A stretch of 64,000 nucleotides of DNA. Source: Escherichia phage UB. The DNA lies in the sequence record MH383160. One strand, given 5' to 3'. A program made the translations under genes and the position numbers. This document shows, in pieces, positions 2,474-53,564 of the stretch; within the stretch, counting starts at the first letter, position 1; the number at the start of each line of letters is the position of its first letter. Under the pieces are notes generated by a model, which did no database searches, had not been told where the DNA came from, and was given only the letters and a program-made list of their open reading frames with translations.

Positions 2474-2961
2474 TTATCAAGACCCTTATCATAAATGCAA
2501 TTAACAATAATTCCAGCATCTTCCAGTACTTTAATAGCTTCTGGTGGTGTACGAGGATAATTTTTGAGATAAATTACACGTGAAATCCCACTACCTGCAA
2601 TCAACTTAGAACAAGTATAACATGGTTGTAGTGTTGTGTAAAGAGTAGCACCTTGACGTTCAGTAGGAGAACTATAGAGTAAAGCGTTCATTTCAGCATG
2701 GATTTCATGAATATTACTCCACTCATGATGTTCATGCTTTGCTTCATCACTAACCCAGTCTTGAAAACGTCCATCATTGACTAAGTGTTGATTCACATCA
2801 CAACAATTTGGTTGTTTTGATGGAGTACCATTGTATCCAGTACTCAATACTCGATTATTTTTGACAATAACACAACCAACTTTTTGTGAAATACATTTAC
2901 TTTCCTCAGCAACTACTTCTGCTATCTTCAACCAAGTCGTATGTTTCATTATAAGCTCCAA
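2470..2961 (-). CDS. cd: dCMP deaminase (deoxycytidylate deaminase)
   Basis: Cytidine/deoxycytidylate deaminase zinc motifs H-A-E-x-N-A (IHAEMNALL) and P-C-x-x-C (LQPCYTCSK); overall colinear with T4 Cd as recalled (ESKC, STGYNG, CCD segments). Confidence 0.9.
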   Translation of the reverse strand: MELIMKHTTWLKIAEVVAEESKCISQKVGCVIVKNNRVLSTGYNGTPSKQPNCCDVNQHLVNDGRFQDWVSDEAKHEHHEWSNIHEIHAEMNALLYSSPTERQGATLYTTLQPCYTCSKLIAGSGISRVIYLKNYPRTPPEAIKVLEDAGIIVNCIYDKGLDK

Positions 2962-3430
2962 TACTTAACAATGCGTTTTTACACAAATCATGAATTTTCA
3001 TAACTCGAATATAGTTTAACACATCTGTTTCATTAATTTCAAATGGTTTATCTGCATATGTAGACCACGTTTGATTTAATTCAATAACAAATGTAATTTT
3101 ATCTGTATCCATAATATTATCACAAAATCTACGAAAATCTTGCTCTTCATCGGAAAGTCTGAAATTTAAATCATTTTTTAAACCATTAACTGTGAAGCAA
3201 ATACCAGTACTGTAACCGATGCAAATATCTTCAATATCATATAATCCATAAATTAATTTAGAGATAAACGTGCTATATTTGTTTCTATGATAATAGTTTA
3301 ATATTTCTTGTTTAATATTAATTTCAATATCAGTAGTTTTTTGTAATGTAAGTTTAATTAATTCTAATGTCTTGATTATGTTATCTAACCAGATATTAGT
3401 ATCATCTATACTTAGGTGTGTGTATTTCAT
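2906..3430 (-). CDS. hypothetical protein
   Basis: 174 aa minus-strand ORF in tight tandem arrangement; no motif recognised. Confidence 0.5.
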   Translation of the reverse strand: MKYTHLSIDDTNIWLDNIIKTLELIKLTLQKTTDIEINIKQEILNYYHRNKYSTFISKLIYGLYDIEDICIGYSTGICFTVNGLKNDLNFRLSDEEQDFRRFCDNIMDTDKITFVIELNQTWSTYADKPFEINETDVLNYIRVMKIHDLCKNALLSIGAYNETYDLVEDSRSSC

Positions 3431-3956
3431 TATGTCCCTCTAGATTCCAATCATCAACGAGTTTAGAACAAACTTCCATATGATTATAGTACTTTTCATC
3501 CAATACATACGGTTTATTATGATATTGTCGTACATCAGTGAATATATCATAATTTCTATATATGAATGACATATTTTTATGCATTAATTCTATAGTTTTC
3601 CAAATTTTCTCAATATCATATAGAATTGTTTCTAATGACAAACCTGTTAACTTGGAAATTCTTTCAACTTTAAACCCTGATAACATCATAGTACTATTGT
3701 GTTTAGTTAAGTAACTATATCCAATAGAACTATGTATTAACTCAATACTATCAGTATATGTGATTGTTTTTAGAAATGATTTTATATTTCTATTTAACCA
3801 ATACCACTTTTTGTTTTTATTATAACATCTATACCATTTCTTCAATATATCAATTGCTTCAGAATTAATTTTTAAAGCAAATTCATCAATTAAAAACATA
3901 TGATGGTAAAAAATATCACTTTGTTCTTCAGTTAAATTATATTGCTGCATATTCAC
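3402..3956 (-). CDS. hypothetical protein
   Basis: 184 aa minus-strand ORF; no motif recognised. Confidence 0.5.
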   Translation of the reverse strand: MNMQQYNLTEEQSDIFYHHMFLIDEFALKINSEAIDILKKWYRCYNKNKKWYWLNRNIKSFLKTITYTDSIELIHSSIGYSYLTKHNSTMMLSGFKVERISKLTGLSLETILYDIEKIWKTIELMHKNMSFIYRNYDIFTDVRQYHNKPYVLDEKYYNHMEVCSKLVDDWNLEGHNEIHTPKYR

Positions 3957-4861: not shown

Positions 4862-5557
4862 TTACACCCACTCTTCCACGCCACCGCGACGCTTAACTAA
4901 GTACTTACCTTCTTCATTGCGTGGCCCAAGAATAATACCATCGATGAAACCATGTTCACCATATTCAAGAGCTTCTTCTGCATTTAACCACAAATCACGG
5001 TCTGCATCTTTAAGTAGTTGTTCGTGTGTTACACCAACTGCTTCTGCAATTTCTTTAGTCAATAGAGTGTTTAGGGCATCAGAATGTTTAAGTGAAATCT
5101 TCTGGTCAGTAATTAGACCTTGTGTACCAGAACTTACTTGGTGACACATGAAATAAGAACGCTTACCACCTAAACGGAAACCTTTAGTGCCAATTACAGA
5201 TTGTGTATAGCAACCCATTGATGCTGCATAGCCCATTACTACAGTGCGAATTGGAGAAATACAAGACTTAGCAACATCTGCAATACCCAAACCTGCGTGT
5301 ACTGAACCACCCGGTGAACTAATGTAGAATGTAATAGGGGAATCACCTTGTGAGTCTAACCATACCAATTGTTGTTTGATGATATGTGCCATTTGATCAT
5401 TGAAATCAGTATCAAGGAAAATGATACGGTCTTGCATCATACGAGATGCTAGATCATATGTACGTTCTGAACCATTAACTTTCTCAACTACGTAAGGAAT
5501 AGAAATGTTACGTACTTCGCCATTAGCATAACCACCAAACATGAATTGTTCAACCAT
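4862..5557 (-). CDS. clpP: ATP-dependent Clp protease proteolytic subunit (ClpP) homologue
   Basis: Canonical ClpP segments: YISSPGGSV, MGYAASMG (catalytic Ser), MCHQ (His), DADRD (Asp); colinear with bacterial ClpP as recalled. Confidence 0.85.
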   Translation of the reverse strand: MVEQFMFGGYANGEVRNISIPYVVEKVNGSERTYDLASRMMQDRIIFLDTDFNDQMAHIIKQQLVWLDSQGDSPITFYISSPGGSVHAGLGIADVAKSCISPIRTVVMGYAASMGCYTQSVIGTKGFRLGGKRSYFMCHQVSSGTQGLITDQKISLKHSDALNTLLTKEIAEAVGVTHEQLLKDADRDLWLNAEEALEYGEHGFIDGIILGPRNEEGKYLVKRRGGVEEWV

Positions 5558-6423: not shown

Positions 6424-7215
6424 TTAAATTTCAAATACAAATTTAGGATTGTAATCAAAATTCTCACAAGCTCCACTGTATGATTCATAGCCTCGTGGAT
6501 TACAAATGATACGTGTCTTACCAATGTGGTAGTCAAAGCTACTATGAACATGACCATGAATCCAAACATCAGCACCCAAATCTTCAATGTACTGATCCAT
6601 ATCGGAACAGTAACAACCATTCAGTGAATCATTTTTATATTTTGGTGAAACACTTTGATAACTTGGTGCGTGATGGGTAACCACGATGACCTTGAAATCA
6701 TTATCATGCATAAAGCGAACTGTGTCAATAGAATTTTTGATAAATTGTTTATCTTTGTGATGCATAAACTCAGTATCATCTGGTGTCAGTTTCTTACGCC
6801 AAGGCTCTGATGTTGTTCCATGACGGATATGTTTGTAATCGTTCATCTTCTGACGAGCATCAAACTTCGTCAAAGAATTACCTTTATCGAAGTCTGTCCA
6901 CAGAGTACTACCAACAAGCAGTACTCCATCCAGCCATACAAATTTGTTTTGCAAAAAGATGAAATTTGGAATCTCATCTTGTATATCGGACAGTACTTGG
7001 TGCGTCTTGTGAATGTTTGAACCGTAATATTCATGGTTACCTGGAACCAGTACTACATTCTTAAACTGCTTACACAGGGATTCAATGCCAGTACGATAAC
7101 GACTACGTTTAACTTCATCAAAATCCCCAGCAATAATCAGTACTGTATCACTGTAATCACCACTATGGAGGTAATCAGTACCACCGTGTACGTCAGACGT
7201 TACAACAAATTTCAT
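6424..7215 (-). CDS. calcineurin-like metallophosphoesterase
   Basis: Metallophosphatase signature blocks: SDVHGG (D-x-H), GDFD, GNHE, VTHHAP, GHVH. Confidence 0.75.
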   Translation of the reverse strand: MKFVVTSDVHGGTDYLHSGDYSDTVLIIAGDFDEVKRSRYRTGIESLCKQFKNVVLVPGNHEYYGSNIHKTHQVLSDIQDEIPNFIFLQNKFVWLDGVLLVGSTLWTDFDKGNSLTKFDARQKMNDYKHIRHGTTSEPWRKKLTPDDTEFMHHKDKQFIKNSIDTVRFMHDNDFKVIVVTHHAPSYQSVSPKYKNDSLNGCYCSDMDQYIEDLGADVWIHGHVHSSFDYHIGKTRIICNPRGYESYSGACENFDYNPKFVFEI

Positions 7216-7234: not shown

Positions 7235-8653
7235 TTAGCCAAGTGATTCAATGATACTGTTTGAGAACACCTCAACAGCACTATCACGAATTTCTAAAAT
7301 ACGAGTATAGTCGTCACAAGTGTTTTTGTCAAATCTAAATTCAATAAACACTGGTAAGAACAGTGATGGCTCACCAGTACGCTTGTCGAATACAATGTCA
7401 TTACACTCAACTGTAACCACTTTACCAATAAGTTCTTGCATTCTTTCCCAAATGGTTTTAAAGGTCCATTCAGCATCTTTCTCTTTGATACCAGTACCCA
7501 CATTAACTTTCAATGAACCACAAGCACTTTCCAGTTGTAAAGAACCTAGGCTTCCTTTACGTTTACCTTCACCTTCATTGAAACCAACAATACGCAAGTC
7601 TAGTTGCATTTTCAATTTCATTTTCAACTGCTTCGGAGAAGTGTGAGATTTCCAGATACCATCTTCACATTTCAGTACTGAACCCTCTTCACCTTCGTTC
7701 ATTAGTTCACTATTGTACTCAAATGCTTCTTTGATGTTTAGAACTTTACGGAATCTAACCATACGAACAAAATCACTATTGAGTTCGTTAATTGCATCTA
7801 CTAAGATCTCGCGACGTTCTTTACGTTTTACATCCCATACACCTTCACAAAATGCATCATATGGAACAACATCCCATAGAACGAATACAGTACGCATTGC
7901 TTCATTCTGACTGATGCTATCTTTACCAGCTTTCTGAATTATACCGTTGCCAGTAGTGCGTGGGAGAATGGTTTCTCCATCATTGTCCAGTACTACACCT
8001 TCCCCCATAAAGACCACACCACTACTAAAACGTTCATCTTTACTTTGGATGATGTGAGCAAGACCTGCCATCTCACCATCACGACAACCCAGGAAGTCGT
8101 ATAGTTTACCATTACGGGATGTAGAAGTTAATGAACCATTAATGACAACGTGGTTCAAGTACTGACCATCCATTTTCACTTCTGATATAGCGTAACCATA
8201 ATCTTTGAAGTTGATGTTCTTTGCAGTCTTTTTGTCAATCAAAGAACAACGCATATATGGTTCGTCTTTAATAAAGCCTTTACCAAATACATCATTGCAG
8301 TTCTTTTCTTGAATACCACAATCAAGGTTTTTAGTAAGCATTTTACGGAGAACTTCCTGATCATCTTCAGATACAGAACCCAGTACTGAAGCAATGAAAT
8401 CACGCCCCGCATTTCCTGTCACATCACGCTTGTAAATGCATTCTAGCTTATCAATTGCTTCATCTAACGTCATATGTTGATATACGTCATCAGCGGCAGG
8501 GAGCTTCTTATAGCCACTAACGATAGAAGGGTCTAGAGTATATTTCAGTACTTTTTGTAAAGTTACATTATCTTTATTTTGTTCAAGAATAGCTTTTTTG
8601 CCTAGTGTACTGCTAGTATTTTTAATGCTTTCAAGAATTGCTAAAATGCTCAT
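7235..8653 (-). CDS. 30: ATP-dependent DNA ligase (T4 gene 30-like)
   Basis: Nucleotidyltransferase motif I K-x-D-G (EVKMDGQYL); N-terminal region MSILAILESIK..STLGKKAILEQNKDN closely parallels T4 DNA ligase N-terminus as recalled; 472 aa. Confidence 0.9.
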   Translation of the reverse strand: MSILAILESIKNTSSTLGKKAILEQNKDNVTLQKVLKYTLDPSIVSGYKKLPAADDVYQHMTLDEAIDKLECIYKRDVTGNAGRDFIASVLGSVSEDDQEVLRKMLTKNLDCGIQEKNCNDVFGKGFIKDEPYMRCSLIDKKTAKNINFKDYGYAISEVKMDGQYLNHVVINGSLTSTSRNGKLYDFLGCRDGEMAGLAHIIQSKDERFSSGVVFMGEGVVLDNDGETILPRTTGNGIIQKAGKDSISQNEAMRTVFVLWDVVPYDAFCEGVWDVKRKERREILVDAINELNSDFVRMVRFRKVLNIKEAFEYNSELMNEGEEGSVLKCEDGIWKSHTSPKQLKMKLKMQLDLRIVGFNEGEGKRKGSLGSLQLESACGSLKVNVGTGIKEKDAEWTFKTIWERMQELIGKVVTVECNDIVFDKRTGEPSLFLPVFIEFRFDKNTCDDYTRILEIRDSAVEVFSNSIIESLG

Positions 8654-10786: not shown

Positions 10787-11545
10787 TTACCTTTTGAAAC
10801 GATTGAATGAGTACTCATCTTTTTCTTTACGTAAGTATCTCATTCCACCACTTTGTGGAGTAGCGAGAGTTAAGTCACCCGTCAAGAACTGACTATCAAT
10901 CCAAATGCGATTACCGTAAATTAGTGGATCTGTAACTGCTGTATGTCCACTAAAGACACAATGCACTCCATCTAACTTAGGTGCATAATATGTATTATTA
11001 GTTCTACAATAATCGAATGTTTTTCTATCCCACAAGCACTTATCAATTATATCAGCACTAAGTGATTTTGTCCCATTAACAAATCGTTCCCATGTTGTAT
11101 ATTCCAACGGAACTCCAGCATGAACTAACCCAATCTTCAATCCTCGGTGATTGATTTGGATAATCATAGGGAGATCCTTTAAGTACTGACGAAAGAATTG
11201 AATGCCTGTTCCTCCAACTTCATCAAGGAATTTATCACCACCATTACTTATCCAGCAATGATACCAATCTCGAAGTGTTTCCGAATCAACGCACATCATC
11301 TCATGATTACCCGCAATCATGTAACGATTTTCTCCGAACAAAAATTCAAAAAGGAGCTTTGAATTTTGTTCTCCACGGTCGATAATATCACCTACACTGA
11401 AAACATAATCATTGTGTGTAATACCAAATTCTTTCACTGTAGCATCCCATAGTTTTCCATTACCATGCAAATCACCTACAATGTATAAATCTTTATCATC
11501 AGGTACGGTTACTTCTAAGAAGTGTTTCATTATTACTCCAACCAT
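10787..11545 (-). CDS. Ser/Thr protein phosphatase (lambda PPase-like metallophosphatase)
   Basis: PPP-family motifs GDLHG, GDIIDRG, GNHE, plus downstream His-containing blocks (VHAG, SGHT). Confidence 0.75.
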   Translation of the reverse strand: MVGVIMKHFLEVTVPDDKDLYIVGDLHGNGKLWDATVKEFGITHNDYVFSVGDIIDRGEQNSKLLFEFLFGENRYMIAGNHEMMCVDSETLRDWYHCWISNGGDKFLDEVGGTGIQFFRQYLKDLPMIIQINHRGLKIGLVHAGVPLEYTTWERFVNGTKSLSADIIDKCLWDRKTFDYCRTNNTYYAPKLDGVHCVFSGHTAVTDPLIYGNRIWIDSQFLTGDLTLATPQSGGMRYLRKEKDEYSFNRFKR

Positions 11546-14727: not shown

Positions 14728-14972
14728 TATAATAAACCTCTCACATAAAACATTGATGAAAATAGATAATCATCAGTACTTGTGTTTAGATGTTTAGAAA
14801 AGCTATATTTTTTATTTTTATTTTCGTATAAAGACAATCTATAGAACATTTCTATATTTTCTAAGTATTCTTTTTGTAATAACATCTGTGTTTTTACATT
14901 CATTATAATATTCCTTAAAAGAAAAAGGGACCAACATATGATCCCTTTTGTATTAGAAATTTCCTTCTGCAA
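14727..14972 (-). CDS. hypothetical small protein (start probably at an internal Met)
   Basis: 81 aa track ORF; its 5' part overlaps pseT 3' end and a weak hairpin, so the real start is likely downstream. Confidence 0.3.
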   Translation of the reverse strand: MQKEISNTKGIICWSLFLLRNIIMNVKTQMLLQKEYLENIEMFYRLSLYENKNKKYSFSKHLNTSTDDYLFSSMFYVRGLL

Positions 14973-15885
14973 CTTGAAAAACTTTCAAGCCAAGTAGCTT
15001 ACGCCACATGAATACGACTTGTGCTCGGTCATCATATACCTTTTTAACATCGTAATGATCAACCACATTTTTCATGTACAGGTCGAATTTTACAACATCA
15101 TCAGGACGTTTATCATCGATATCTCGCATAAACAATGCATCGTAAGGAACACCCCAATTCTTAAGCCACTGTTCGGTATCAGCACGACACCCTTCAGTAC
15201 GCCCACTCATGACGATAATCTTGCGTTTATGAAAAACTGCTTCAGCGATAATAGACAAAATAACTTCTTCATCAGGTGTATCCTGAAGAACAGTACTTTC
15301 ATCGTAAGGATTACGACCCCATTTATGAGCAAGAGTACCGTCAATATCAACGATAACAGCAGCTTCGCGTGAATTACCATAGTAACCAATGTGTAATGCT
15401 TTACTATAATAGTACGTATCTGCCATTTTGTCAATGATATCATCTGGTACTGAACGCCCACGCTGGAGGTTATATTTCTTACAAAGTTTTACGAACTCTT
15501 TAATCTTAAAGAATTCATGAACATCTGCACCACGGTCTTCATTAGGTACAAAATCATCATAGAAGTTCTTTTCTTTGTAATCATAACCATTATCTGTAGC
15601 CCATACTTTCCAGAGATCACGGAAATGTGGTTTAAGGTTCGTATCGGATACGATGATGTTCCAACCATTCTCTGCTGCTGAATTTGCTGCACTGAACTGT
15701 AAATTATCTACGTACTGCTCATTAGCATCGTTGAATTTGTAAGCATCATGTGACCCAGCCATAGATTCACGAATATCATCACGGTTGATGTTGATAGTCT
15801 TGGATTTGGCTTTTTTAATCTCTTGCACTGCCCATGTAGTTTTACCACACCCAGGCAATCCAACTGTTAATGTGATAGTTGGCAT
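14953..15885 (-). CDS. pseT: polynucleotide 5'-kinase / 3'-phosphatase
   Basis: Walker A GLPGCGKTT near N-terminus; HAD-like phosphatase motif VIVDIDGTLA; C-terminal DDVVK, DDRAQVVFMWR and QVAEGNF colinear with T4 Pnk as recalled. Confidence 0.9.
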   Translation of the reverse strand: MPTITLTVGLPGCGKTTWAVQEIKKAKSKTININRDDIRESMAGSHDAYKFNDANEQYVDNLQFSAANSAAENGWNIIVSDTNLKPHFRDLWKVWATDNGYDYKEKNFYDDFVPNEDRGADVHEFFKIKEFVKLCKKYNLQRGRSVPDDIIDKMADTYYYSKALHIGYYGNSREAAVIVDIDGTLAHKWGRNPYDESTVLQDTPDEEVILSIIAEAVFHKRKIIVMSGRTEGCRADTEQWLKNWGVPYDALFMRDIDDKRPDDVVKFDLYMKNVVDHYDVKKVYDDRAQVVFMWRKLLGLKVFQVAEGNF

Positions 15886-15888
15886 CCT

Positions 15889-16218
15889 TTAATCCTCTAA
15901 AAATTTAACATGCTCTATATTATGATAGGTGAGCCATTCCTGTGGTGTTCCCTTTCGTATTAAAACACCAATATACGCAATACCATTAATTAGACCATTA
16001 CTATCAGTATTCACATCAACTTTCACAATCTCGGAATCGTACCAGTGTTTAAATGTGTAATCCCAACATCTGACTTTCTTCCCAATAAGATTGCTCTTGT
16101 ATTTGTCAATCATTTCATCGACGATAGTTTGCACTGAATTTTTAATTTCAGCTTCTACTGACTTTATATATAGTAAATTACTTTGTGCATTGTTTATCAT
16201 TATATTTCCCAACTCCAA
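15889..16218 (-). CDS. hypothetical small protein (K-Y-x-G family)
   Basis: 109 aa; IDKYKSNLIGKKVRC motif. Confidence 0.45.
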   Translation of the reverse strand: MELGNIMINNAQSNLLYIKSVEAEIKNSVQTIVDEMIDKYKSNLIGKKVRCWDYTFKHWYDSEIVKVDVNTDSNGLINGIAYIGVLIRKGTPQEWLTYHNIEHVKFLED

Positions 16219-16414
16219 ATCGCTTGGAGATTTTCACAAGTACAGATTCATCACAACGAATACTAGCAGTATCATTGGATGAACTGTACTTTAATGGGGT
16301 CCACTGTAATTGAGATTCTTCTAGGAACTTGATACATCTGAAATAATCTTTCAAGGAAAGAAATTTAACTACTGACATATCCTGAACAATACTATGCTGA
16401 ACTTCAACTTTCAT
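16178..16414 (-). CDS. hypothetical small protein
   Basis: 78 aa ORF. Confidence 0.4.
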   Translation of the reverse strand: MKVEVQHSIVQDMSVVKFLSLKDYFRCIKFLEESQLQWTPLKYSSSNDTASIRCDESVLVKISKRFGVGKYNDKQCTK

Positions 16415-16423
16415 ATGAACTCC

Positions 16424-16681
16424 TTATAGTGGGTCGAATTTATTTTCACGTTTCGATGTATAGCGAGTTACATCATGTATTCTCGGCTTAACACCTTTTG
16501 GTTTCCTTTTCTTCTTGTATTCAGTACTACTACATCCGAAGGTATTCTCGATTCGTTTCTTACTTATCTTCACACCTTTCATTGAGCGTTTGTGCTGTAA
16601 TTCATCGATTTCTTCTTGTATTTTCCTGAACTCAGTCGGAGAAAGGGAACCGTCATTTTTATACTTAGGTTTAGCCATCAC
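16424..16681 (-). CDS. small basic protein
   Basis: 85 aa, Lys/Arg-rich (KKKRKPKGVKPR). Confidence 0.45.
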   Translation of the reverse strand: MMAKPKYKNDGSLSPTEFRKIQEEIDELQHKRSMKGVKISKKRIENTFGCSSTEYKKKRKPKGVKPRIHDVTRYTSKRENKFDPL

Positions 16682-16708
16682 TTCTCCTTGTGCTTAGGCT
16701 AGATAGTA

Positions 16709-17851
16709 CTAAAAATCCTTTAGTACAATTTTCATGTATTTTATAAGAGTCTCTTTGTAATCAACTTTCTTATTGTTATACATTGCAAAGGCCAAGCCCT
16801 GACGATTCAGTTCATTAGTTAAACACTCCTGAACCTTCATTGCGAATTCCTTTCGCTCCAAGTGCTTGTGTTCCTTGACGAAGCTTTCTACTTCATCTTG
16901 TAATGCATTATAGCACGAAAATACCAATTGTTCCATTCTTAATATCTTTTGCATAGCATATTCATCAGTACTGAACAATTGTTTTAAATCATCACTTGAA
17001 CCATTTAATACTGCTTCATATAAATGAGAATCAATAATAATACTATCTTTTGTAAGATGTAATGAACTGTACCAGTCAGTCTTTATTTTACACATTGTCC
17101 CATTATTTAGGATGCACACAAAACCCTCAATATCAAGCATTTTATGAACTTCCTCCACGCTTTCACGGAAGGTATTTCGTACCGGAAAAGTGTGATGAAT
17201 ATCTTTTCCAGTCATATTAGTACTGTACTGTGCAAGACATGGAAACTTATCACGTAGTGCTTTACCACATAGCAACTCACCACTCACACGATGACGAACG
17301 TTCAGTACAAACAGTTGTTCTACCTGATATGGTAATACAATTCGGTACTCTGGGCTTGTATACTCCATATTAACTGTGTAACCTAAACGTTCCGCTTCGT
17401 CGATGTACTGATACAAATTCTGGTTCTCGTTAATAAGTCGAGTACTGTTAATCGCATGGTCAGAATACAATGCTGTATGTGATTTACAACGAATCTCACC
17501 ATCATTATCACGGTAAGTACTGATAATCGAACCATCCAACTTAGGCATCACTACCGCAATGTCATCGCATGTGGTGTTAGCAGGGAACATTGTAGCAGGA
17601 TTCTCGTAAGCATTGAAGAACTTTTTCATTGTACGTGCTGCACAACGTATCATGTCACCTTCTTCATCAATTTCCCACATAGAGCCACGGGTTTCCAATG
17701 CATTTGGTTGCATGAAATCAGTGTATGATGCTAGACGATAACTGAATACACGATACGTGCCACCAGCAGGACTTTTATGATCCACATAAAAGAATGCATC
17801 GTTTGTATTACATAAGTGCATTAAATCTTCATATATTTGCAAAAGGGTCAT
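16709..17851 (-). CDS. rnlA: RNA ligase 1 (T4 gene 63 / Rnl1 homologue)
   Basis: Adenylylation lysine motif K-x-D-G (MPKLDGSIIS); blocks FFY, RVFSY, ASY, EGFV, KIKTDWY, GSSDDLK, DEY colinear with T4 Rnl1 as recalled; 380 aa. Confidence 0.88.
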   Translation of the reverse strand: MTLLQIYEDLMHLCNTNDAFFYVDHKSPAGGTYRVFSYRLASYTDFMQPNALETRGSMWEIDEEGDMIRCAARTMKKFFNAYENPATMFPANTTCDDIAVVMPKLDGSIISTYRDNDGEIRCKSHTALYSDHAINSTRLINENQNLYQYIDEAERLGYTVNMEYTSPEYRIVLPYQVEQLFVLNVRHRVSGELLCGKALRDKFPCLAQYSTNMTGKDIHHTFPVRNTFRESVEEVHKMLDIEGFVCILNNGTMCKIKTDWYSSLHLTKDSIIIDSHLYEAVLNGSSDDLKQLFSTDEYAMQKILRMEQLVFSCYNALQDEVESFVKEHKHLERKEFAMKVQECLTNELNRQGLAFAMYNNKKVDYKETLIKYMKIVLKDF

Positions 17852-18156
17852 TTTATTACCTCTATATCTACATCAGTTCCATAATATGATATTAATCCAT
17901 CATCAGATTCACACTGAATAGACAACTCAGATTCATAGTATGTTACTTTATTCACTGTTAGTACTTGTTCTTCAATTACTCCAGAAAAATAATTCATCTC
18001 ACGTACACGAACTTTAGTTCCTTTAGGTAGTTCATCTGAGATTTTTCGAACAAGATCATAAGCAGCCTGTTCAAGTGTGTACAGTAATTGTAATCTATCT
18101 TGAATATTCATATTATTTCCACCAACTGGTATCACGTCCATTAGACAAAGATTCAT
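17848..18156 (-). CDS. hypothetical small protein
   Basis: 102 aa ORF. Confidence 0.45.
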   Translation of the reverse strand: MNLCLMDVIPVGGNNMNIQDRLQLLYTLEQAAYDLVRKISDELPKGTKVRVREMNYFSGVIEEQVLTVNKVTYYESELSIQCESDDGLISYYGTDVDIEVIK

Positions 18157-21799: not shown

Positions 21800-21992
21800 G
21801 AACACGCTCACAATTAAGGCAATAAATGCACTCAATGTCAGGTCGCCATGATTTATCAAAATCTTTGTGCTGTTCTTCGGTGTATTCTGCATCATCATTA
21901 ATAGGGAAGAAATCACCAGCACCAGTCGCCCAGTCTGAATCTAAACGGAAACGAGCTAATTGAGTACTGTTACAATATGGACATTTATTCAA
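21792..21992 (-). CDS. small zinc-ribbon protein
   Basis: 66 aa with CPYC near N-terminus and CIYCLNC near C-terminus. Confidence 0.45.
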   Translation of the reverse strand: MNKCPYCNSTQLARFRLDSDWATGAGDFFPINDDAEYTEEQHKDFDKSWRPDIECIYCLNCERVHD

Positions 21993-22269
21993 AATTTATT
22001 CCTTCTAACTGATATACGTTTAATGAAAATGACCCACTATTATTATCGCATCTGAAACACAGTGTTAAAGAACCATTAAAACTAACTACATCCGTACAGA
22101 TACATTTTTCACCATTGGATATGATAGATTTTCCTATATATAAATCTCTTACTATAGTACGGTAATGTTGCCATAAAAAATAATACACACTTTCATAGTA
22201 CTCATCTTTTACATATGATAAGTATAAGAATTTATAAAATACTTGTATTTCCTTTAAGTTGTTTTTCAT
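21985..22269 (-). CDS. tandem paralogue family C member
   Basis: 94 aa; N-terminal LKEIQVFYKFLYLSY resembles neighbours. Confidence 0.45.
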   Translation of the reverse strand: MKNNLKEIQVFYKFLYLSYVKDEYYESVYYFLWQHYRTIVRDLYIGKSIISNGEKCICTDVVSFNGSLTLCFRCDNNSGSFSLNVYQLEGINFE

Positions 22270-22543
22270 TCTTCAATTCCAGTAAATTTACACCAATCCA
22301 ATCAACATCACTATCAGTACTTAATTCCAATCGTAGCTTACCGCTATGACTAACAATATCGCGGAATTTGTATATTTTATTATCACGAACTATACACAAA
22401 TCATGGTAATAATCATGTAATTCATCCAAAAACTTTATCCATACCGAACGATAGATTTCACTGTAGAGATATTCTCCAGCATCAACCGTAGCGTATTGGA
22501 TATACAAAAATTTGTATGTGAATTGTATATCATTTAATAACAT
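22232..22543 (-). CDS. tandem paralogue family C member
   Basis: 103 aa; MLLNDIQFTYKFLYIQY N-terminus. Confidence 0.5.
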   Translation of the reverse strand: MLLNDIQFTYKFLYIQYATVDAGEYLYSEIYRSVWIKFLDELHDYYHDLCIVRDNKIYKFRDIVSHSGKLRLELSTDSDVDWIGVNLLELKNEKQLKGNTSIL

Positions 22544-22553
22544 ATGTAACCTC

Positions 22554-22865
22554 TTATAAATTCACCAACTTCACAACTTTAATCTCGATAAATCCCCTAT
22601 CGGTTATTTCCTGAAATTGAACATGGATTATACCATTATATGATTGCACACCATAGAAATCGAATTTATCATTTCCATCGATAAAAGTACTGTAATTCTT
22701 TTTTATATATTCACCTACTGAATCTAAGTACTCAATATATAAATCAATAAATGGTTGTTCTTTGTATCGGTTATGTGAACCTATGTTGTTACTAACAAGG
22801 TATACATCATACAAATCATATAGGATCTTATAAGTGAATTGTATATCATTTAAATTTAATCCCAA
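22554..22865 (-). CDS. tandem paralogue family C member
   Basis: 103 aa; LNLNDIQFTYKILYDLYD N-terminus. Confidence 0.5.
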   Translation of the reverse strand: MGLNLNDIQFTYKILYDLYDVYLVSNNIGSHNRYKEQPFIDLYIEYLDSVGEYIKKNYSTFIDGNDKFDFYGVQSYNGIIHVQFQEITDRGFIEIKVVKLVNL

Positions 22866-23122
22866 GGGAATATCTCCAACGGAATACTGGTAAATCCAAA
22901 ATCAGTGTAGTACTGAACCTCAACTTTACCATCACGTCTAATGATTATATCAGAAAATTCTGCATGGTCATCACCAATAATAACAGTACTGAATTTTTTT
23001 TTAATCTTACCACGAATCGTATGAATCATTTCAGTGCCTGTGTCTTCTAGACTAGGGCTATCATTGTCGTGTGCTAAATCTCGAATAATCTTGTATGTTA
23101 GTAGGAAATCTTTATAATTCAT
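22856..23122 (-). CDS. tandem paralogue family C member
   Basis: 88 aa; MNYKDFLLTYKIIRDLAHD N-terminus. Confidence 0.5.
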   Translation of the reverse strand: MNYKDFLLTYKIIRDLAHDNDSPSLEDTGTEMIHTIRGKIKKKFSTVIIGDDHAEFSDIIIRRDGKVEVQYYTDFGFTSIPLEIFPWD

Positions 23123-23394
23123 ATGTCCACCAAATCTATACTATATCTTTCATTAGTATTACTATCTATAAATGATAGTACTAATTTACCACCAAAACTA
23201 TTAACTTGTTCTATCTTCTGTTTTTTACCACGAATGATTATCTCACTATTAACAAAATATTCACGTATCATTATTAAGTGATTAATCCAGATAGTATGAG
23301 TGAATGTGTTTTCTCGTATTGTATTGAGATATCTTCCATTGTGATGTAAATCAAACAAAACACTGTATGTATATTGTAGAACTTTATAATTCAT
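23119..23394 (-). CDS. tandem paralogue family C member
   Basis: 91 aa; MNYKVLQYTYSVLFDLHH N-terminus. Confidence 0.5.
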   Translation of the reverse strand: MNYKVLQYTYSVLFDLHHNGRYLNTIRENTFTHTIWINHLIMIREYFVNSEIIIRGKKQKIEQVNSFGGKLVLSFIDSNTNERYSIDLVDI

Positions 23395-24611: not shown

Positions 24612-25145
24612 TTATTTCCTCATGTATTTTATAACGTCTTCAAATAATTGTATTTTTAAGTCCTCGTCATTTCCAGGTAAAAACTCACGAAAACTATCAA
24701 AATCTTCATTTTTTGCGAAGTTACGCATTTGTGTTGAGCTATATTGACTTGATTGGCGGTCAATACCTGCTTGAATTGCTTTTATATTACAAAAATTATA
24801 CAACTTCCCATTGTAACTGTCAAGTGTTTTCTGAAAAGAATCAATACGGTCTGAACCACATATAAAAAATACATCTAAATATTTTCCATCTAATTCACGC
24901 ATTATATCAAAAAGATTATCTTCAGTATAAATGTTTTCTTGAACCGAAGGATAGAAACCCTCAGTGTAATACATCTTTAATTCAGGAGGAAGCGGGTTTT
25001 TTATATTATCAGTACTGGTGCTTAGATATATTTTCAAATCTGCATTGTACTGTTCTTGTAATGTTTTGGCCTTTTCAAAAACTAAACCATGACCATTGTG
25101 GACTGGGTTACATCTCATAAATGATAATATACATGTTTCTTTCAT
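24612..25145 (-). CDS. HxGH-motif nucleotidyltransferase (NMN/NaMN adenylyltransferase-like)
   Basis: N-terminal SFMRCNPVHNGH fits the (H/T)xGH signature of the nucleotidyltransferase alpha/beta phosphodiesterase superfamily; SSTQMR near C-terminus resembles the ISSTxxR motif. Confidence 0.55.
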   Translation of the reverse strand: MKETCILSFMRCNPVHNGHGLVFEKAKTLQEQYNADLKIYLSTSTDNIKNPLPPELKMYYTEGFYPSVQENIYTEDNLFDIMRELDGKYLDVFFICGSDRIDSFQKTLDSYNGKLYNFCNIKAIQAGIDRQSSQYSSTQMRNFAKNEDFDSFREFLPGNDEDLKIQLFEDVIKYMRK

Positions 25146-43493: not shown

Positions 43494-44044
43494 AATAGTT
43501 CCTTATACATATTATGTACTTTACAAATCTCATTATAGTATTTCATATCAATATCATTTGTATTAAAAACGGAAACAGACAATACCGCTAAATCATCAAT
43601 GAAGTAATTATTATCGGCGTACTCTTTTAACTTATTGAACATATAGATGCATTTTATACTTAATTCATCATGCAACACACTGTTCTGAAAAATATTCTCT
43701 TCAGTATTAGGAGATAAGTAATCTTCAATTATATACGATAAACTACTATCGCAATCTTTATAGATTGAAATTGATGGATGTAATGTGTCATACATTACAC
43801 TAAACAGATCACCGTCATATGTGGATATTAAACTATTATTGGAAACAGTAGGATGATAATATTTCAGTACTGAAAACTTTGAACAATCAGTGCAGTAAAA
43901 ATGATCCATCCCTCGACGACTTTCGTATGAGAATAGTTTACTTGTATATTCAATCCCTTTGGTGCGACGGATTGTTTCATGCATTTCTGCACATTGCATT
44001 AAAATTACCATACGTTCAAACGCAAGATCTAAATCATCGTACAT
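43484..44044 (-). CDS. family A protein
   Basis: 186 aa; EENIFQNSVLH. Confidence 0.55.
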   Translation of the reverse strand: MYDDLDLAFERMVILMQCAEMHETIRRTKGIEYTSKLFSYESRRGMDHFYCTDCSKFSVLKYYHPTVSNNSLISTYDGDLFSVMYDTLHPSISIYKDCDSSLSYIIEDYLSPNTEENIFQNSVLHDELSIKCIYMFNKLKEYADNNYFIDDLAVLSVSVFNTNDIDMKYYNEICKVHNMYKELLCQ

Positions 44045-44225
44045 AACGGATATCCTTCTTCAACGAATTAATATATTCCAAAATAACTTGTTCCTGATAT
44101 TGAGTTCCCAAGTACATCAGGACTTTCAACTCTTTGAATTCAGTACTATATGAGTCTGTTTGCATCATTCTAGTAGAATATATATTGAATAGTTTAGCAA
44201 TGTCATTTTGGTCTATTATTTTCAT
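44034..44225 (-). CDS. family B small protein (outlier copy)
   Basis: 63 aa; LMYLGTQYQEQV. Confidence 0.45.
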   Translation of the reverse strand: MKIIDQNDIAKLFNIYSTRMMQTDSYSTEFKELKVLMYLGTQYQEQVILEYINSLKKDIRYVR

Positions 44226-44421
44226 ATATTCTCTTCTGGATTAGTTCCTGTAAGTGCTGAATATAACCCTTCATTGCAACATCCTGTTTGTTAGAGCCAA
44301 CGAAGAACAAGAGCTTAAAGTCATGGTAATCCATTTTTGGTTTAGTAGTGAACCATATGTCCCACACTGCACTCACAGTTCTCATGTATTCAATTCGATT
44401 AAATGTTTTTGAATACTTCAT
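44203..44421 (-). CDS. family B-like small protein (outlier copy)
   Basis: 72 aa; FFVGSNKQDVAMKGY. Confidence 0.4.
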   Translation of the reverse strand: MKYSKTFNRIEYMRTVSAVWDIWFTTKPKMDYHDFKLLFFVGSNKQDVAMKGYIQHLQELIQKRIYENNRPK

Positions 44422-44935
44422 CGATGTTCATCGCCAATAAGTTAATATACAAATTACTGTTAAATGCTATCTGCAATTCCATATAGAACTGAATGATAGC
44501 ATAGTCAGGGTCAGTACACGATAGTTGAAAGCACTGTTCTTCAAATGAATTGTAATTGTACTTAGGGATGTGAATTTCACGCTTCAAATCAGGTTGACCC
44601 CACTTCATCGCGTACACACCAATGTTATTGTTCTTTTTCCTTTTCTTAAATGTTAATTGTTGAATATTTCCTGCGTCATCCAGGAAAATAGTATTATTCG
44701 ACACAGGTGCACCAATAGAAAACAATGATGTATCAATTACGTGTGTCGCACGCACCTCACACTTCTGGAATGCCCCAGTACCCTGTAATACATAATGAAA
44801 ATTGTACTTCTCATTAACAACAGTACTAGGATCGATTAAACCAGTACTGCATTTTTTGAGTACTGGTACAATGGTGCGAATCTTTTTTGATAAATCTTGT
44901 AATGCATCAAAGTCATTGATGTTAACTTTCATCAC
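44399..44935 (-). CDS. family A protein
   Basis: 178 aa; EEQCFQLSCT. Confidence 0.55.
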   Translation of the reverse strand: MMKVNINDFDALQDLSKKIRTIVPVLKKCSTGLIDPSTVVNEKYNFHYVLQGTGAFQKCEVRATHVIDTSLFSIGAPVSNNTIFLDDAGNIQQLTFKKRKKNNNIGVYAMKWGQPDLKREIHIPKYNYNSFEEQCFQLSCTDPDYAIIQFYMELQIAFNSNLYINLLAMNIDEVFKNI

Positions 44936-45381
44936 TCGAATGTAGCCTCTTCAGTAGTAACAAAATTGGTTAGTGTATCCAGTTCAGCAGTGTCAAGATA
45001 AAATACATCTAGTACAGATTTCTGATATATTACACTGAATGTGCATAGATTGTCAAGTGTTCCTTGTTCATAAACAGTACTACCCTGGAAGTACCCTTCT
45101 TCAGTACTCAGGGATAAAATATCTGAAATTTTAAAAGATTCTTCAGTTGCATGTCTTTCTATATTAACTATATTGCCGTTTCGGTTCAATGAAATATAAT
45201 CGTATGCTAACTCAATTAGACTATAATTATCCGCATTAGTGTCAAATAAAGCGACAATTTTTCGTCTCAATCTCTCATCGTGATCATGGTTTTCATCAGC
45301 TAAGTATTCAGGATTTTCTTTGAAGAATTTAACGACGCGTAGAATATCATTTGCTTTCTTGATTGCACTTTCGTAACTCAT
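44932..45381 (-). CDS. family A protein
   Basis: 149 aa; EEGYFQGSTVY. Confidence 0.55.
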   Translation of the reverse strand: MSYESAIKKANDILRVVKFFKENPEYLADENHDHDERLRRKIVALFDTNADNYSLIELAYDYISLNRNGNIVNIERHATEESFKISDILSLSTEEGYFQGSTVYEQGTLDNLCTFSVIYQKSVLDVFYLDTAELDTLTNFVTTEEATFE

Positions 45382-45686
45382 AATAATTCAACCACTCCAT
45401 CTCTAAAGTACATATAACTACCACCATTGGATACTGTGAATTCTATTGTCCCCAATAATATATTATATTTTTTTATTTCACATGTAGTACTTGTAGTGTA
45501 AGGCTCACCATCTCCTAAGTACATTGACATATGACATAGAACTTTTCTACCAGCATATTTCTCTTCAAACGATTGTTCAAAACTATGCATAATTTGATTT
45601 AAAGCTGAAATGTAATTAATAAAGTCAGGTATTTCTGTCAATGAATTATAAACCGTACAAAGTGAATCAAATTCATTTTTAGTCAT
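45378..45686 (-). CDS. hypothetical small protein (K-Y-x-G family)
   Basis: 102 aa; EEKYAGRKVLC. Confidence 0.45.
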   Translation of the reverse strand: MTKNEFDSLCTVYNSLTEIPDFINYISALNQIMHSFEQSFEEKYAGRKVLCHMSMYLGDGEPYTTSTTCEIKKYNILLGTIEFTVSNGGSYMYFRDGVVELL

Positions 45687-46000
45687 TATATTTCTATCTC
45701 AATGTAATCCTGTGTGATTAAATAATCCCAATGATACTTCACCTGCTTTTGTAATTCAATTAACGTAAAGAAGTTGATCGATTTATCCCATACGAGCGAT
45801 TCCTGGAAAATAAATGATTCATGTTCATCGTAATAATCACACTCTAAAAAATCAGGTATATATTCACTATCGTGAATGTATTCAACAAACGAACTAGCTT
45901 GGCATTTCTTTACTACTAGTAATAATGAATTATCATGATCAAACAGATACAATAAACTAATTTCACCAGGGACGTACTGAACACTGAATAAGTTTTTCAT
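45686..46000 (-). CDS. family A protein
   Basis: 104 aa; ESFIFQESLVW. Confidence 0.55.
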   Translation of the reverse strand: MKNLFSVQYVPGEISLLYLFDHDNSLLLVVKKCQASSFVEYIHDSEYIPDFLECDYYDEHESFIFQESLVWDKSINFFTLIELQKQVKYHWDYLITQDYIEIEI

Positions 46001-46449
46001 TCTATACCTTCTGGATCTTTACGAAGTTCTTCGAAATCCAAATAAAATCGAGGACAGTTAACACTCTTTAAGTACCACATAATAACTAATGCTTCAAGTA
46101 CTTCATCATCGTAAACAGTACTGTTTTGGAAGTAATACTCTTCACTATCCCACGGACCTTCCAGTACTTCATAATTCAAAATTAATGGTTTTTTGCGATT
46201 AATAAAACGAATGCTACCATTTTCAACATAACTAATAAATTCTGCATCTCTATTGTATTCAGAAAACGATATAGGACTATTGGAATTCAACCCAAGAATA
46301 ACCCTTACACCAACGGAGTTATTATACATTTCATCCTTGTAGTAGTTGCCGTTCTCGGCTTTGTACACTTCTTTGAACTTTCCTGCCTTTATATCGTCAA
46401 AGTATCCATGTAGTTCTTTTGCTTTTTCAAGAGCACTTTGTAATGACAT
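45997..46449 (-). CDS. family A protein, MSLQSAL subfamily
   Basis: 150 aa; N-terminus MSLQSALEKAKELH; EEYYFQNSTVYDDEVLEALVIMWYLKSV. Confidence 0.6.
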   Translation of the reverse strand: MSLQSALEKAKELHGYFDDIKAGKFKEVYKAENGNYYKDEMYNNSVGVRVILGLNSNSPISFSEYNRDAEFISYVENGSIRFINRKKPLILNYEVLEGPWDSEEYYFQNSTVYDDEVLEALVIMWYLKSVNCPRFYLDFEELRKDPEGIE

Positions 46450-46915
46450 TACCTTCTCCTACAGTATTCTCTACATATTCATAATCAAAATAGAAACTAC
46501 TGGAGTCAATACTTTTGAAATACCACATAATTACAATAACATCTAATTCTTCTTCATTGTACAACGTACTATTCTGGAAGTAATATTCTTCACTATCCCA
46601 CGGTCCTTCCAGTACTGAATAAGGAATGATAGTGTCATCAGCATCACTATCTGTGTTGTAGATGGTAATATCTTCATTACGGCAATAACTAATGTACTGA
46701 TTGTACATATGATATTCACAGTTATCACTGTCACCAGTATCAGTGTGCAGTACTAATGTTTCTGCACATATCTCGGACTCGTCATAATCGTCACGGTCTT
46801 TTACAAAAAATTCAGTATCAGATGTTTTATACACCCCAGGTACTGAACCTTCCTGTACCATAATCATGTACTCATGAATCTTCTTTGCTTCTTTCAATGC
46901 ACTTTGTAACGACAT
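46427..46915 (-). CDS. family A protein, MSLQSAL subfamily
   Basis: 162 aa; MSLQSALKEAKKIH; EEYYFQNSTLYNEEELDVIVIMWYFKSI. Confidence 0.6.
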   Translation of the reverse strand: MSLQSALKEAKKIHEYMIMVQEGSVPGVYKTSDTEFFVKDRDDYDESEICAETLVLHTDTGDSDNCEYHMYNQYISYCRNEDITIYNTDSDADDTIIPYSVLEGPWDSEEYYFQNSTLYNEEELDVIVIMWYFKSIDSSSFYFDYEYVENTVGEGNVITKCS

Positions 46916-47358
46916 TACAAATCCCCTGTACTTAAATATTCACATGCTCCCCAGTCAAGAAAAAATGGTTCAAACTTCAATTCCTTAAAGTACCACAAAA
47001 CAACCAAGGAATCAAGCATTTCTTGGTTAAAAATAAGACTCTGTTGGAAGTAATACTCTTCAGTACCCCACGGGCCATCAAGTACCCCGAAGTCAACAGG
47101 TGTATTTGATGTGTCAAACGTAATCTTAGTACCTGGAATATATACAAAAAAACTAGTATATTGACTACATGAAGAGTACTGTATAGTATTGTCTTTATCC
47201 TGTCCCATAAGTAAAATATCATCAGAGTATGTCTTTATACCTGATAGATAATACTCATCACCAAATGCACTTACTTTATCACCATAGAACCCACTTTTTA
47301 TGTTATCGTGGAAGTGATGTATTCTGTGTGCTAGTTCAAGTGCACTTGCTAAACTCAT
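46915..47358 (-). CDS. family A protein, MSLQSAL subfamily
   Basis: 147 aa; MSLASALELAHRIH; EEYYFQQSLIFNQEMLDSLVVLWYFKEL. Confidence 0.6.
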   Translation of the reverse strand: MSLASALELAHRIHHFHDNIKSGFYGDKVSAFGDEYYLSGIKTYSDDILLMGQDKDNTIQYSSCSQYTSFFVYIPGTKITFDTSNTPVDFGVLDGPWGTEEYYFQQSLIFNQEMLDSLVVLWYFKELKFEPFFLDWGACEYLSTGDL

Positions 47359-47825
47359 ATATCCTCTTTAATAACTCGTAGTAGATCCAAGTCCAAATAG
47401 AAGCTAGGACAATCTGTATTATTAAAGTACCACAGAATGACAAGCTTGTCAAGTACATCTTCCTCGTAGATAGTATTCTGCTGGAAGTAGTACTCTTCAC
47501 TTCCCCAGTCATTATCCAGTACTGAATACGGAAGATGTTTCTCTGCTGCACCAGATATAATGTCAGAATCTTGTATTAAAATATCAGCATCACGACAGAA
47601 GTACATGTAATTATCTTCCAAATTAACATCACACCCATTGAGTGTTGTTTCAGAAGAATCTAAGTTTTCTTCATACATGTGAATGTACTCACTACTGTCA
47701 TCGTATCTCATTCGACAATAAGATTTACCTTCCTTGAATAGATATCCATTAAGACAATTTGCTACAATTTCTTTGCTGCATAAATCAATTAACTTCGCAA
47801 TCTCTAATGCTCTTTCTAAACTCAT
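47355..47825 (-). CDS. family A protein, MSLQSAL subfamily
   Basis: 156 aa; MSLERALEIAKLID; EEYYFQQNTIYEEDVLDKLVILWYFNNT. Confidence 0.6.
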   Translation of the reverse strand: MSLERALEIAKLIDLCSKEIVANCLNGYLFKEGKSYCRMRYDDSSEYIHMYEENLDSSETTLNGCDVNLEDNYMYFCRDADILIQDSDIISGAAEKHLPYSVLDNDWGSEEYYFQQNTIYEEDVLDKLVILWYFNNTDCPSFYLDLDLLRVIKEDI

Positions 47826-47826
47826 T

Positions 47827-48318
47827 TCAACCCCTGTTAATACCGTTATCTACAGTTTTCTTTACGTATTTGTAATCGAAATAGAAGTTCCCAGAACCAA
47901 TACTTTTAAAGTACCACATAATTATAATAACATCAAGTACTTCATTATCATATACAGTACTTTGTTGGAAGTAATACTCTTCACTATCCCACGGACCTTC
48001 CAGTACTTCACTCGGAATTATAATGTCATTGGAATCGCTGTCAGTACTGTTGATGGTATCTGTATCATTAATATAGACCATGTACTCATTATGCATATTA
48101 ATGAAGCATTCATAATCATTAGGGTCGGTATCTAGTATGCACGTTTCTGTATCCAGTACGCACGTTTCTGTATCTGAGCAGTCATTATAAAGGAGGTTAT
48201 CCGGTACATAATATTGAGTACTTGTGTCTTTGAAAACACCGTAAACTGAACCTTCTTTTGCCATATTCATGTACTCATGAATCTTCTTTGCTTTTTCCAA
48301 TGAACTCTGTAATGTCAT
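47827..48318 (-). CDS. family A protein, MSLQSAL subfamily
   Basis: 163 aa; MTLQSSLEKAKKIH; EEYYFQQSTVYDNEVLDVIIIMWYFKSI. Confidence 0.6.
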   Translation of the reverse strand: MTLQSSLEKAKKIHEYMNMAKEGSVYGVFKDTSTQYYVPDNLLYNDCSDTETCVLDTETCILDTDPNDYECFINMHNEYMVYINDTDTINSTDSDSNDIIIPSEVLEGPWDSEEYYFQQSTVYDNEVLDVIIIMWYFKSIGSGNFYFDYKYVKKTVDNGINRG

Positions 48319-48327
48319 TTTATAATC

Positions 48328-48687
48328 TCATATATTGAAATAATAATTATTCGTTCTTGATGGGGATGGATTAAATACGTTTTCTTTTTCAAATCTCTTC
48401 ATTTCATTTTGCAAAGAAACCATTTCTTCAAATGTACAGGAGTACTTATTCTTATCAAACACTAATGCAGCCTGAAATAGTTCGCCATCGTCCAGTACTG
48501 TATAATCTATAAGACTCTCAGATTCATAGTCATAGTCGTCATGTGATACATGAATAAATTTAAAACAAGAATCTTTGTAATGCATATATAAACTCAACTC
48601 ATGTTCCGAGTCGCCCTTAATAAGATTACAGCACAAGTCCCATCCTTTAGGTAACTTATAATAGTACATAGAATAATCATATGTCAT
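48328..48687 (-). CDS. family A protein, LVFDK subfamily
   Basis: 119 aa; DGELFQAALVFDKNKYSCTFEEMVSLQNEMK. Confidence 0.55.
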   Translation of the reverse strand: MTYDYSMYYYKLPKGWDLCCNLIKGDSEHELSLYMHYKDSCFKFIHVSHDDYDYESESLIDYTVLDDGELFQAALVFDKNKYSCTFEEMVSLQNEMKRFEKENVFNPSPSRTNNYYFNI

Positions 48688-49417: not shown

Positions 49418-49614
49418 CTTAATCTCTACTATAATTAATAAGGTAAACTCCAATATAAGGAGCACGTTGCGGGGGCGGGGTATTTTTTGTTTCAGGAAAC
49501 ATGAACTGTACTCTGAAAAACACAATATAAAACTTTATATTAAACATATACCTTAGCATGTTTTTCAGCGGAAATTTTTTTGACCCCCCTGCGGCCTGTA
49601 AAAATGAAACGTCT

Positions 49615-53512: not shown

Positions 53513-53564
53513 GATAACAGCTTTGGTCTTCTATGTCAATACCAAAACGAAAAAAGCCCATATC

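Follow-up and report, generated by a model that had tools for sequence, protein, structure and literature searches.

Repair genes at the locus

Escherichia phage UB (sequence record MH383160) is an Asteriusvirus jumbo myovirus of Escherichia coli, and the 64,000-nucleotide stretch of its DNA analysed here (hereafter the window) carries two genes of the T4 RNA repair type: pseT, for a polynucleotide kinase/phosphatase (Pnkp), and rnlA, for RNA ligase 1 (Rnl1). Both are minus-strand genes, separated by 823 bp that hold three small open reading frames (ORFs); that strand carries 146 of the 151 gene-like ORFs of the window in our own ORF call, and the window has no transfer RNA (tRNA) genes. The 5 kb around both genes are 99.6% identical in nucleotides to phAPEC6 (MK817115) and 98–99% identical to PBECO4, SP27, BF17, and others. 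The two genes and their diagnostic motifs are as follows.

14953–15885, minus strand: pseT, a bifunctional polynucleotide 5'-kinase/3'-phosphatase of 310 amino acids (PDB, Pfam, and PHROG matches)
15838–15861, minus strand: kinase Walker A motif, or P-loop, GLPGCGKT, residues 9–16 of Pnkp, including Lys15 and Thr16 (alignment, checked on the DNA)
15496–15561, minus strand: insertion of about 22 amino acids in Pnkp, present only in the Rak2-like clade, between the kinase core and the helix of Arg142 (T4 Arg126) (alignment)
15334–15348, minus strand: phosphatase DxDGT motif, DIDGT, residues 180–184 of Pnkp (alignment, checked on the DNA)
16709–17851, minus strand: rnlA, RNA ligase 1 of 380 amino acids, with an adenylyltransferase domain and an Rnl1-specific C-terminal domain (PDB, NCBIfam, and Pfam matches)
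17531–17542, minus strand: ligase motif I, KLDG, with Lys104 (alignment, checked on the DNA)
17477–17482, minus strand: ligase motif Ia, Ser124-His125, corresponding to T4 Ser118-Lys119 (13-sequence alignment, checked on the DNA)
17081–17128, minus strand: ligase motifs IV (EG, 17123–17128) and V (KIK, 17081–17089) (alignment, checked on the DNA)

Both proteins were matched over their defining domains. The phosphatase half of Pnkp covered almost the whole of the Pfam HAD_PNKP profile (1.2e-43, 149.1 bits against a cutoff of 27.6, profile positions 2–143 of 143), and the kinase half matched the P-loop kinase family AAA_33 (5e-13, 50 bits, cutoff 27); the protein also matched phrog_505, "polynucleotide kinase" (7e-96), T4 polynucleotide kinase (PDB 1ltq, 4.9e-41), and bacterial Pnkp1 (PDB 4xrp, 2.4e-32). 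The ligase matched Pfam RNA_lig_T4_1 (9e-16), phrog_562 (3e-109), and T4 RNA ligase (PDB 2c5u, 1.5e-56), and it passed the NCBIfam equivalog TIGR02308, "T4 RnlA family RNA ligase", over residues 5–370 (292.6 bits, cutoff 242.25). Its residues 268–379 matched T4_Rnl1_C, the family of the Rnl1-specific, all-helical C-terminal domain (6.6e-17, 62.4 bits, cutoff 27, profile positions 1–113 of 122), and the protein itself shares 100% identity with the RNA ligase of PBECO4. On these sequence matches the identification of a T4-type Pnkp and a T4-type Rnl1 is secure. A sequence-only reading of the window had named the same pair within 3 kb, from the Walker A, DxDGT, and KxDG motifs: both ORFs lie where it had put them, all three motifs were located on the DNA, and the Pfam, PHROG, PDB, and NCBIfam searches bore the two names out and gave nothing to refute them.

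Catalytic residues and selection

To place individual residues, both window proteins were aligned with those of T4 (translated from NC_000866) and with homologues from RaK2, pEa_SNUABM_50, XaC1, JD18, KP15, Konradin, an RB49-like phage, an Aeromonas phage, a 642-kb uncultured phage, and a Campylobacter phage. In Pnkp, the kinase residues Lys15, Thr16, Asp36, Arg39, Asp81, and Arg142 are kept, among them the equivalents of T4 Asp35, Arg38, and Arg126. A pairwise alignment had set T4 Arg126 against Gln141, as if the arginine were lost; this was a one-residue shift, since the multiple alignment places Arg142 there, within an NLxR motif conserved throughout the clade. The phosphatase domain retains Asp180, Asp182, Arg191, Ser227, Arg229, Asp262, Lys266, Asp285, and Asp286, and all of the T4 counterparts sought in it (Arg176, Ser211, Arg213, Asp254, Lys258, Asp277, and Asp278) are present. 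Asp180 is the predicted phosphatase nucleophile, the counterpart of T4 Asp165. By analogy with T4, the enzyme would be expected to act as a 5'-OH kinase and as a 3'-phosphatase/2',3'-cyclic phosphodiesterase.

Conservation is similarly extensive in the ligase, where Arg55, Lys77, Phe79, Lys104, Asp106, Gly107, Glu163, Glu242, Gly243, Lys255, and Lys257 are invariant in 13 of 13 aligned Rnl1 sequences. Lys104 is predicted to be the nucleophile to which adenosine monophosphate (AMP) becomes attached, as counterpart of T4 Lys99, and Arg55, Lys77, and Phe79 correspond to the Rnl1-specific N-terminal residues Arg54, Lys75, and Phe77 of T4. The departure from this pattern is motif Ia. Across the 13-sequence alignment, histidine at this position is confined to Asteriusvirus, Alcyoneusvirus, Eneladusvirus, and a single metagenomic relative (the aligned carriers of Ser-His being the window phage, RaK2, pEa_SNUABM_50, and the metagenomic relative), and the lysine is kept in XaC1 and in all eight other homologues, T4-like or more distant. 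Wang et al. 2003 (J Biol Chem) reportedly found Lys119 of T4 Rnl1 to be essential for the RNA-adenylylation step.

Coding-sequence comparisons with phAPEC6 and 121Q gave ratios of non-synonymous to synonymous divergence (dN/dS) of 0–0.12 for rnlA and 0.12–0.17 for pseT. Between the window and 121Q, all 13 nucleotide differences counted in rnlA are synonymous. With dN/dS thus between 0 and 0.17, both genes are maintained by purifying selection, His125 included, and because this selection on rnlA is strong, the His125 variant of the ligase is probably functional.

Gene string and intervening ORFs

The pair belongs to a compact string of minus-strand genes, whose remaining members, and the hairpin that follows it, are listed here.

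17848–18111, minus strand: small ORF of 87 amino acids, its stop sharing 4 nt with the start of rnlA (phrog_28139, a family of unknown function)
16424–16678, minus strand: small ORF of 84 amino acids from ATG (85 from a GTG at 16681), isoelectric point (pI) 10.1, 24 Lys+Arg residues (phrog_15306, a family of unknown function)
16178–16414, minus strand: small ORF of 78 amino acids with a predicted beta-beta-alpha-beta-beta-alpha fold (AlphaFold 2 model)
15889–16200, minus strand: variable small ORF just upstream of pseT, 103 amino acids from ATG (109 from a TTG at 16218) (phrog_31355)
14923–14949, minus strand: terminator-like hairpin, an 11-bp stem and then a U-rich tail, beginning 4 nt past the pseT stop (sequence scan, RNA fold)

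From the 87-residue ORF through pseT, the successive intergenic gaps are −4, 30, 9, −23, and 3 bp. The hairpin folds at −14.4 kcal/mol (z = −3.6 against shuffled sequences), and a scan for sigma-70 promoters returned no more than shuffled expectation. From this arrangement, rnlA and pseT are plausibly co-expressed, and the 87-residue ORF is probably co-transcribed with rnlA.

Two of the intervening ORFs are fixed features of the clade. Homologues of the 84-residue protein were found in 61 phage records, all of them Rak2-like jumbo phages, and the gene sits directly downstream of rnlA at every locus inspected; those of the 78-residue protein were found in 70 phage records, again only Rak2-like jumbo phages, and in 30 clusters among 5.8 billion proteins. 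Wherever the locus was inspected, in four or more genera and in a metagenomic contig, both ORFs lie between rnlA and pseT. The structural model of the 78-residue protein is confident (predicted local distance difference test score, pLDDT, of 82), and its comparison with known structures gave no informative neighbour. We also considered whether the intervening ORFs might be homologues of T4 alc, pseT.1-3, cd.1-5, or 31.1/31.2, and rejected this, as phmmer returned no matches at E <= 0.05. Because Rak2-like genomes are broadly collinear, the conserved position of the small ORFs is weak evidence of joint function.

The slot immediately upstream of pseT is by comparison exchangeable: it holds one ORF here and in phAPEC6 and PBECO4, and two ORFs in 121Q, G17, and many others, the swapped segment being 15886–16196 of the window against 2887–3470 of the 121Q excerpt. 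Relative to 121Q, pseT has diverged far more (synonymous divergence, dS, of 0.26) than rnlA (dS 0.06), a contrast suggestive of a recombination boundary that separates the two genes. The variable ORF at 15889–16200 and the ORF at 17848–18111 both match RaK2_463 (E ~1e-5) and may be distant paralogues. A C-terminal pattern that seemed by eye to be shared more widely among the flanking small ORFs was not upheld, all-versus-all blastp and phmmer backing only this weak link through RaK2_463.

Gene order and distribution among phages

The order rnlA, three to five small ORFs, pseT, all on one strand, recurs in JD18, RaK2, pEa_SNUABM_50, XaC1, and a metagenomic contig. In Campylobacter phage F341 both genes lie within 3 kb in the opposite order, and in Aeromonas phage Asswx_1 no pseT was found within ~5 kb of rnlA. 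A 302-residue ORF downstream of rnlA in the latter was examined as a possible Pnkp and discarded (20% identity, no catalytic residues), so close linkage of the two genes is not universal. Across 50,697 phage records, Rnl1 homologues occurred in 1,631 and Pnkp homologues in 2,140, with near-identical counts per host genus for the two genes among phages of Gram-negative bacteria: 636 against 635 for Escherichia, 287 against 285 for Klebsiella, 77 against 77 for Aeromonas, and 69 against 69 for Acinetobacter. T4-like and Rak2-like phages carry the rnlA–pseT pair as a standard feature.

The closest functional model for the pair is T4 itself. Like T4 PseT, the Pnkp described here joins a P-loop kinase to a DxDGT phosphatase of the HAD type, and like T4 RnlA (gp63), the ligase joins an adenylyltransferase to an Rnl1 C-terminal domain; catalytic residues map one-to-one, save in motif Ia. 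The order of rnlA, small ORFs, and pseT on one strand is also that of T4, where it reads rnlA-alc-pseT.3-pseT.2-pseT.1-pseT. The T4 DNA ligase gene 30 lies ~7 kb further downstream, and a gp30-type ATP-dependent DNA ligase is encoded in the window at 7235–8653 on the minus strand, ~6 kb past pseT; with this ligase gene downstream of pseT in both, long-range gene order is partly conserved between T4 and this jumbo phage. Unlike in the window, the T4 intervening genes are alc and pseT.1-3, to which those here are unrelated, and protein identity to T4 is just 34–41% depending on the alignment. Further differences are the clade-specific insertion in Pnkp and the motif Ia histidine in place of Lys119. 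T4 also has stp, which encodes a 26-residue peptide.

Nearer relatives carry annotated orthologues: phAPEC6 (gp372/gp376), PBECO4, 121Q (121Q_443/438), RaK2 (RaK2_470/464), pEa_SNUABM_50 (pEa_SNUABM_50_74/70), and CBB (CBB_83). Those of the Asteriusvirus members phAPEC6 and PBECO4 are essentially the same genes under the same annotations; relative to 121Q-type isolates, the window differs in having the one-ORF version of the slot upstream of pseT. Among bacterial systems, the Pnkp/Hen1 type (Capnocytophaga Pnkp1-Rnl-Hen1, PDB 4xrp) shares a homologous end-healing enzyme and the same heal-and-seal logic. Its ligase belongs to another clade, and Hen1 protects the repaired junction from being cut again by 2'-O-methylating it. 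A Hen1-like gene was neither annotated nor detected in family scans across the 33 kb around the pair.

PrrC anticodon nucleases in E. coli

In T4, Pnkp and Rnl1 reseal tRNA-Lys that has been cut by PrrC. Amitsur et al. 1987 reportedly described the T4 repair enzymes acting on PrrC-cleaved tRNA-Lys. This repair has been reviewed (PMC12707154), and the C-terminal domain of T4 Rnl1 gives the enzyme its specificity for anticodon-loop breaks, tRNA repair being its physiological role (PMC6379707). Published source data have T1 restricted more than 1e5-fold by a cloned PrrC system, with T4, which carries the pair, plating normally. The same reading is already in print for this group of phages, the phAPEC6 paper stating that the phage might counter the Prr system (PMC7247149) and the pair having been interpreted in this way in PMC5259590 as well.

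To assess the bacterial side, the EcoPrrC sequence was recovered from a published supplement and confirmed with the PADLOC PrrC model (3e-126). At least 532 species-representative genomes hold relatives of it, those nearest to it being in Enterobacterales. A prrC search at the DNA level across 5,426 complete E. coli genomes detected PrrC-family genes in about 20 (~0.4%), a count that at this level is a lower bound. They fall into at least three alleles differing by ~27–31% in nucleotides: the classical allele, annotated "anticodon nuclease", in 6 genomes, and two divergent alleles in 9 and 5. In the one locus examined per allele, the gene order was the hsdM-hsdS-prrC-hsdR of a type I restriction-modification locus, and the prrC gene scored E <= 1e-129 against the PADLOC PrrC model. 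The divergent alleles are labelled only "AAA family ATPase" in RefSeq, so counts of anticodon nucleases based on annotation would miss them. Among the carriers are strain B1, with its prr locus at 4375221–4382229 of NZ_CP157955, and strains C51 and MLI023K1, which have divergent alleles.

The sequence-only reading had also taken the pair to suggest an anticodon-nuclease defence in the phage's host, present or ancestral, and had proposed a search of the host genome for PrrC or RloC-like nucleases. At the level of the species, the search for PrrC turned up PrrC-family genes, in line with the published proposal for phAPEC6; that the host of this particular phage, or an earlier one, may have such a defence is a reasonable reading. 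Within Asteriusvirus, the member UE-S1 has 8 tRNA genes, none of them for Lys, and repair, not replacement, would therefore be its route past PrrC.

A proposed heal-and-seal pathway and its alternatives

We propose that this region encodes a T4-type heal-and-seal RNA repair pathway, most probably one that reverses tRNA cleavage by PrrC-type anticodon nucleases, and we give this reading a probability of roughly 0.8. The two genes would be expressed from one tight minus-strand string with the three small ORFs, ended by the hairpin terminator past pseT. Pnkp would remove the 2',3'-cyclic or 3'-phosphate of a broken RNA and phosphorylate its 5'-OH; Rnl1 would then adenylylate itself at Lys104, move the AMP to the 5'-phosphate, and seal the break, with its C-terminal domain expected to steer the ligase to breaks in tRNA anticodon loops. 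The nucleases so reversed would be those carried within type I restriction loci by a minority of E. coli strains. From the likeness to T4 we infer what the two enzymes do, that tRNA is their substrate, and that they serve in counter-defence.

Several observations weigh against this proposal. The motif Ia histidine occupies the position of T4 Lys119, and the chemistry of the ligase could differ accordingly from that of T4. The conserved gene order may be mere inheritance from a T4-like ancestor; since the cassette and its arrangement are common to T4-like and all Rak2-like phages, the very presence of the pair may owe as much to common ancestry as to any pressure that the present host exerts. 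Finally, PrrC is rare among the E. coli genomes searched, so that an explanation by a single defence looks thin for a pair that every member of a large clade retains.

The last of these points leads to the only rival that we consider comparably likely to the PrrC reading, tentative as it is: that the pair serves as a broad-spectrum repair kit for tRNA, rRNA, or mRNA of either host or phage, and not as an answer specific to PrrC. Possible targets would be cuts that leave 2',3'-cyclic-phosphate and 5'-OH ends, as made by HEPN-type effectors, toxin-antitoxin RNases, colicin-like tRNases, or further defences aimed at tRNA, the retron-associated PtuAB being one. Such a role would fit a nuclease found in only ~0.4% of E. 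coli and a pair that is nonetheless under purifying selection in every Rak2-like or T4-like phage sampled, and several distinct tRNA-targeting defences are known in enterobacteria (PMC11555353). Pnkp homologues are moreover common in actinophages, and phages of Mycobacterium and Streptomyces were absent from the top ten organism groups, by frequency, in the Rnl1 search, which argues that end-healing is useful beyond the T4 pathway. Against so wide a substrate range, no physiological substrate of the T4 enzymes is known to have been shown other than PrrC-cleaved tRNA-Lys. The ligase also retains the Rnl1 C-terminal domain, which in T4 limits efficient sealing to anticodon-loop breaks (PMC6379707).

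The remaining alternatives are unlikely. One would have rnlA kept mainly for tail-fibre attachment, with its proximity to pseT inherited and without a current role in RNA repair. T4 Rnl1 (gp63) does have a second activity that promotes tail-fibre attachment. The PHROG and GenBank names of the family accordingly read "RNA ligase and tail fiber protein attachment catalyst", and the gene order shared with T4 could be purely ancestral. Rak2-like phages are also portrayed with an elaborate tail-fibre apparatus in two papers on the group (PMC5259590, PMC7247149). What makes this explanation improbable is the state of the ligase, in which all catalytic residues but one are invariant and no amino-acid change accompanies the 13 synonymous differences from 121Q, a pattern unexpected for a non-catalytic, chaperone-like activity. 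Pnkp is equally conserved and co-occurs with Rnl1, and we know of no role for it in fibre attachment.

A similarly low probability attaches to a five-gene module particular to jumbo phages, in which the 84- and 78-residue proteins would act with Pnkp and the motif Ia variant of Rnl1, for example by binding RNA, by targeting the enzymes, or by inhibiting a nuclease of the host. The tight packing of the genes, the confinement of both small ORFs to Rak2-like jumbo phages, and their unvarying place between rnlA and pseT where inspected would all suit such a module, and the pI of the 84-residue protein is compatible with nucleic-acid binding. Position is a poor guide among collinear genomes, however; neither small protein has a family, fold, or structure match that points to RNA biology, T4 has the unrelated alc and pseT.1-3 in the same interval, and the adjacent slot is freely swapped between isolates. 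More doubtful again is the notion that the Rak2-like pair has itself turned into a distinct module (His-variant Rnl1, Pnkp with the ~22-residue insert, and the two small proteins), whose members would work jointly, for instance in recognising other damaged RNA or blocking re-cleavage, and would not just repeat the T4 pathway.

Other features of the window

Outside the repair locus, four minus-strand ORFs of the window (4862–5557, 6424–7215, 10787–11545, and 24612–25145) are collinear with phAPEC6 genes annotated as a ClpP-like protease, two Ser/Thr protein phosphatases, and a cytidylyltransferase, the last label being backed by PHROGs and not by Pfam. Three tandem families of paralogues were also noted on this strand. 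The largest, at 39420–59487, comprises ~25 ORFs of roughly 100–195 amino acids (all-versus-all blastp, E <= 1e-3), with no Pfam match in the three members scanned. A second, at 44034–63965, comprises ~23 ORFs packed head to tail, mostly of 70–96 amino acids and one of 269, again with no Pfam match in three members scanned; it forms a dense array at 59477–63965 that coincides with a shift in composition in the last 4 kb of the window, where AT skew falls to about −0.22 and GC skew rises to near 0, from about −0.04 and about −0.15, respectively, in the rest of the window. The third, at 21985–23394, is a five-member family of ORFs of ~90–100 amino acids, of which the one member scanned had no Pfam match.

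Implications for Asteriusvirus and Rak2-like phages

Both genes are already annotated, and already interpreted as an RNA repair pair, in near-identical jumbo coliphages, and the finding is in this respect known and ordinary. Two small points are new and could interest RNA-repair enzymologists: the clade-specific histidine in ligase motif Ia, and the two conserved small proteins that keep their place between rnlA and pseT in every Rak2-like phage examined. For the biology of the group, the T4-type tRNA repair cassette is intact in Asteriusvirus jumbo coliphages, a genus with members under consideration for therapy and biocontrol, and because of it these phages are probably insensitive to PrrC-type abortive infection; given the rarity of PrrC in E. 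coli (~0.4%), the practical effect of this on host range would be small.

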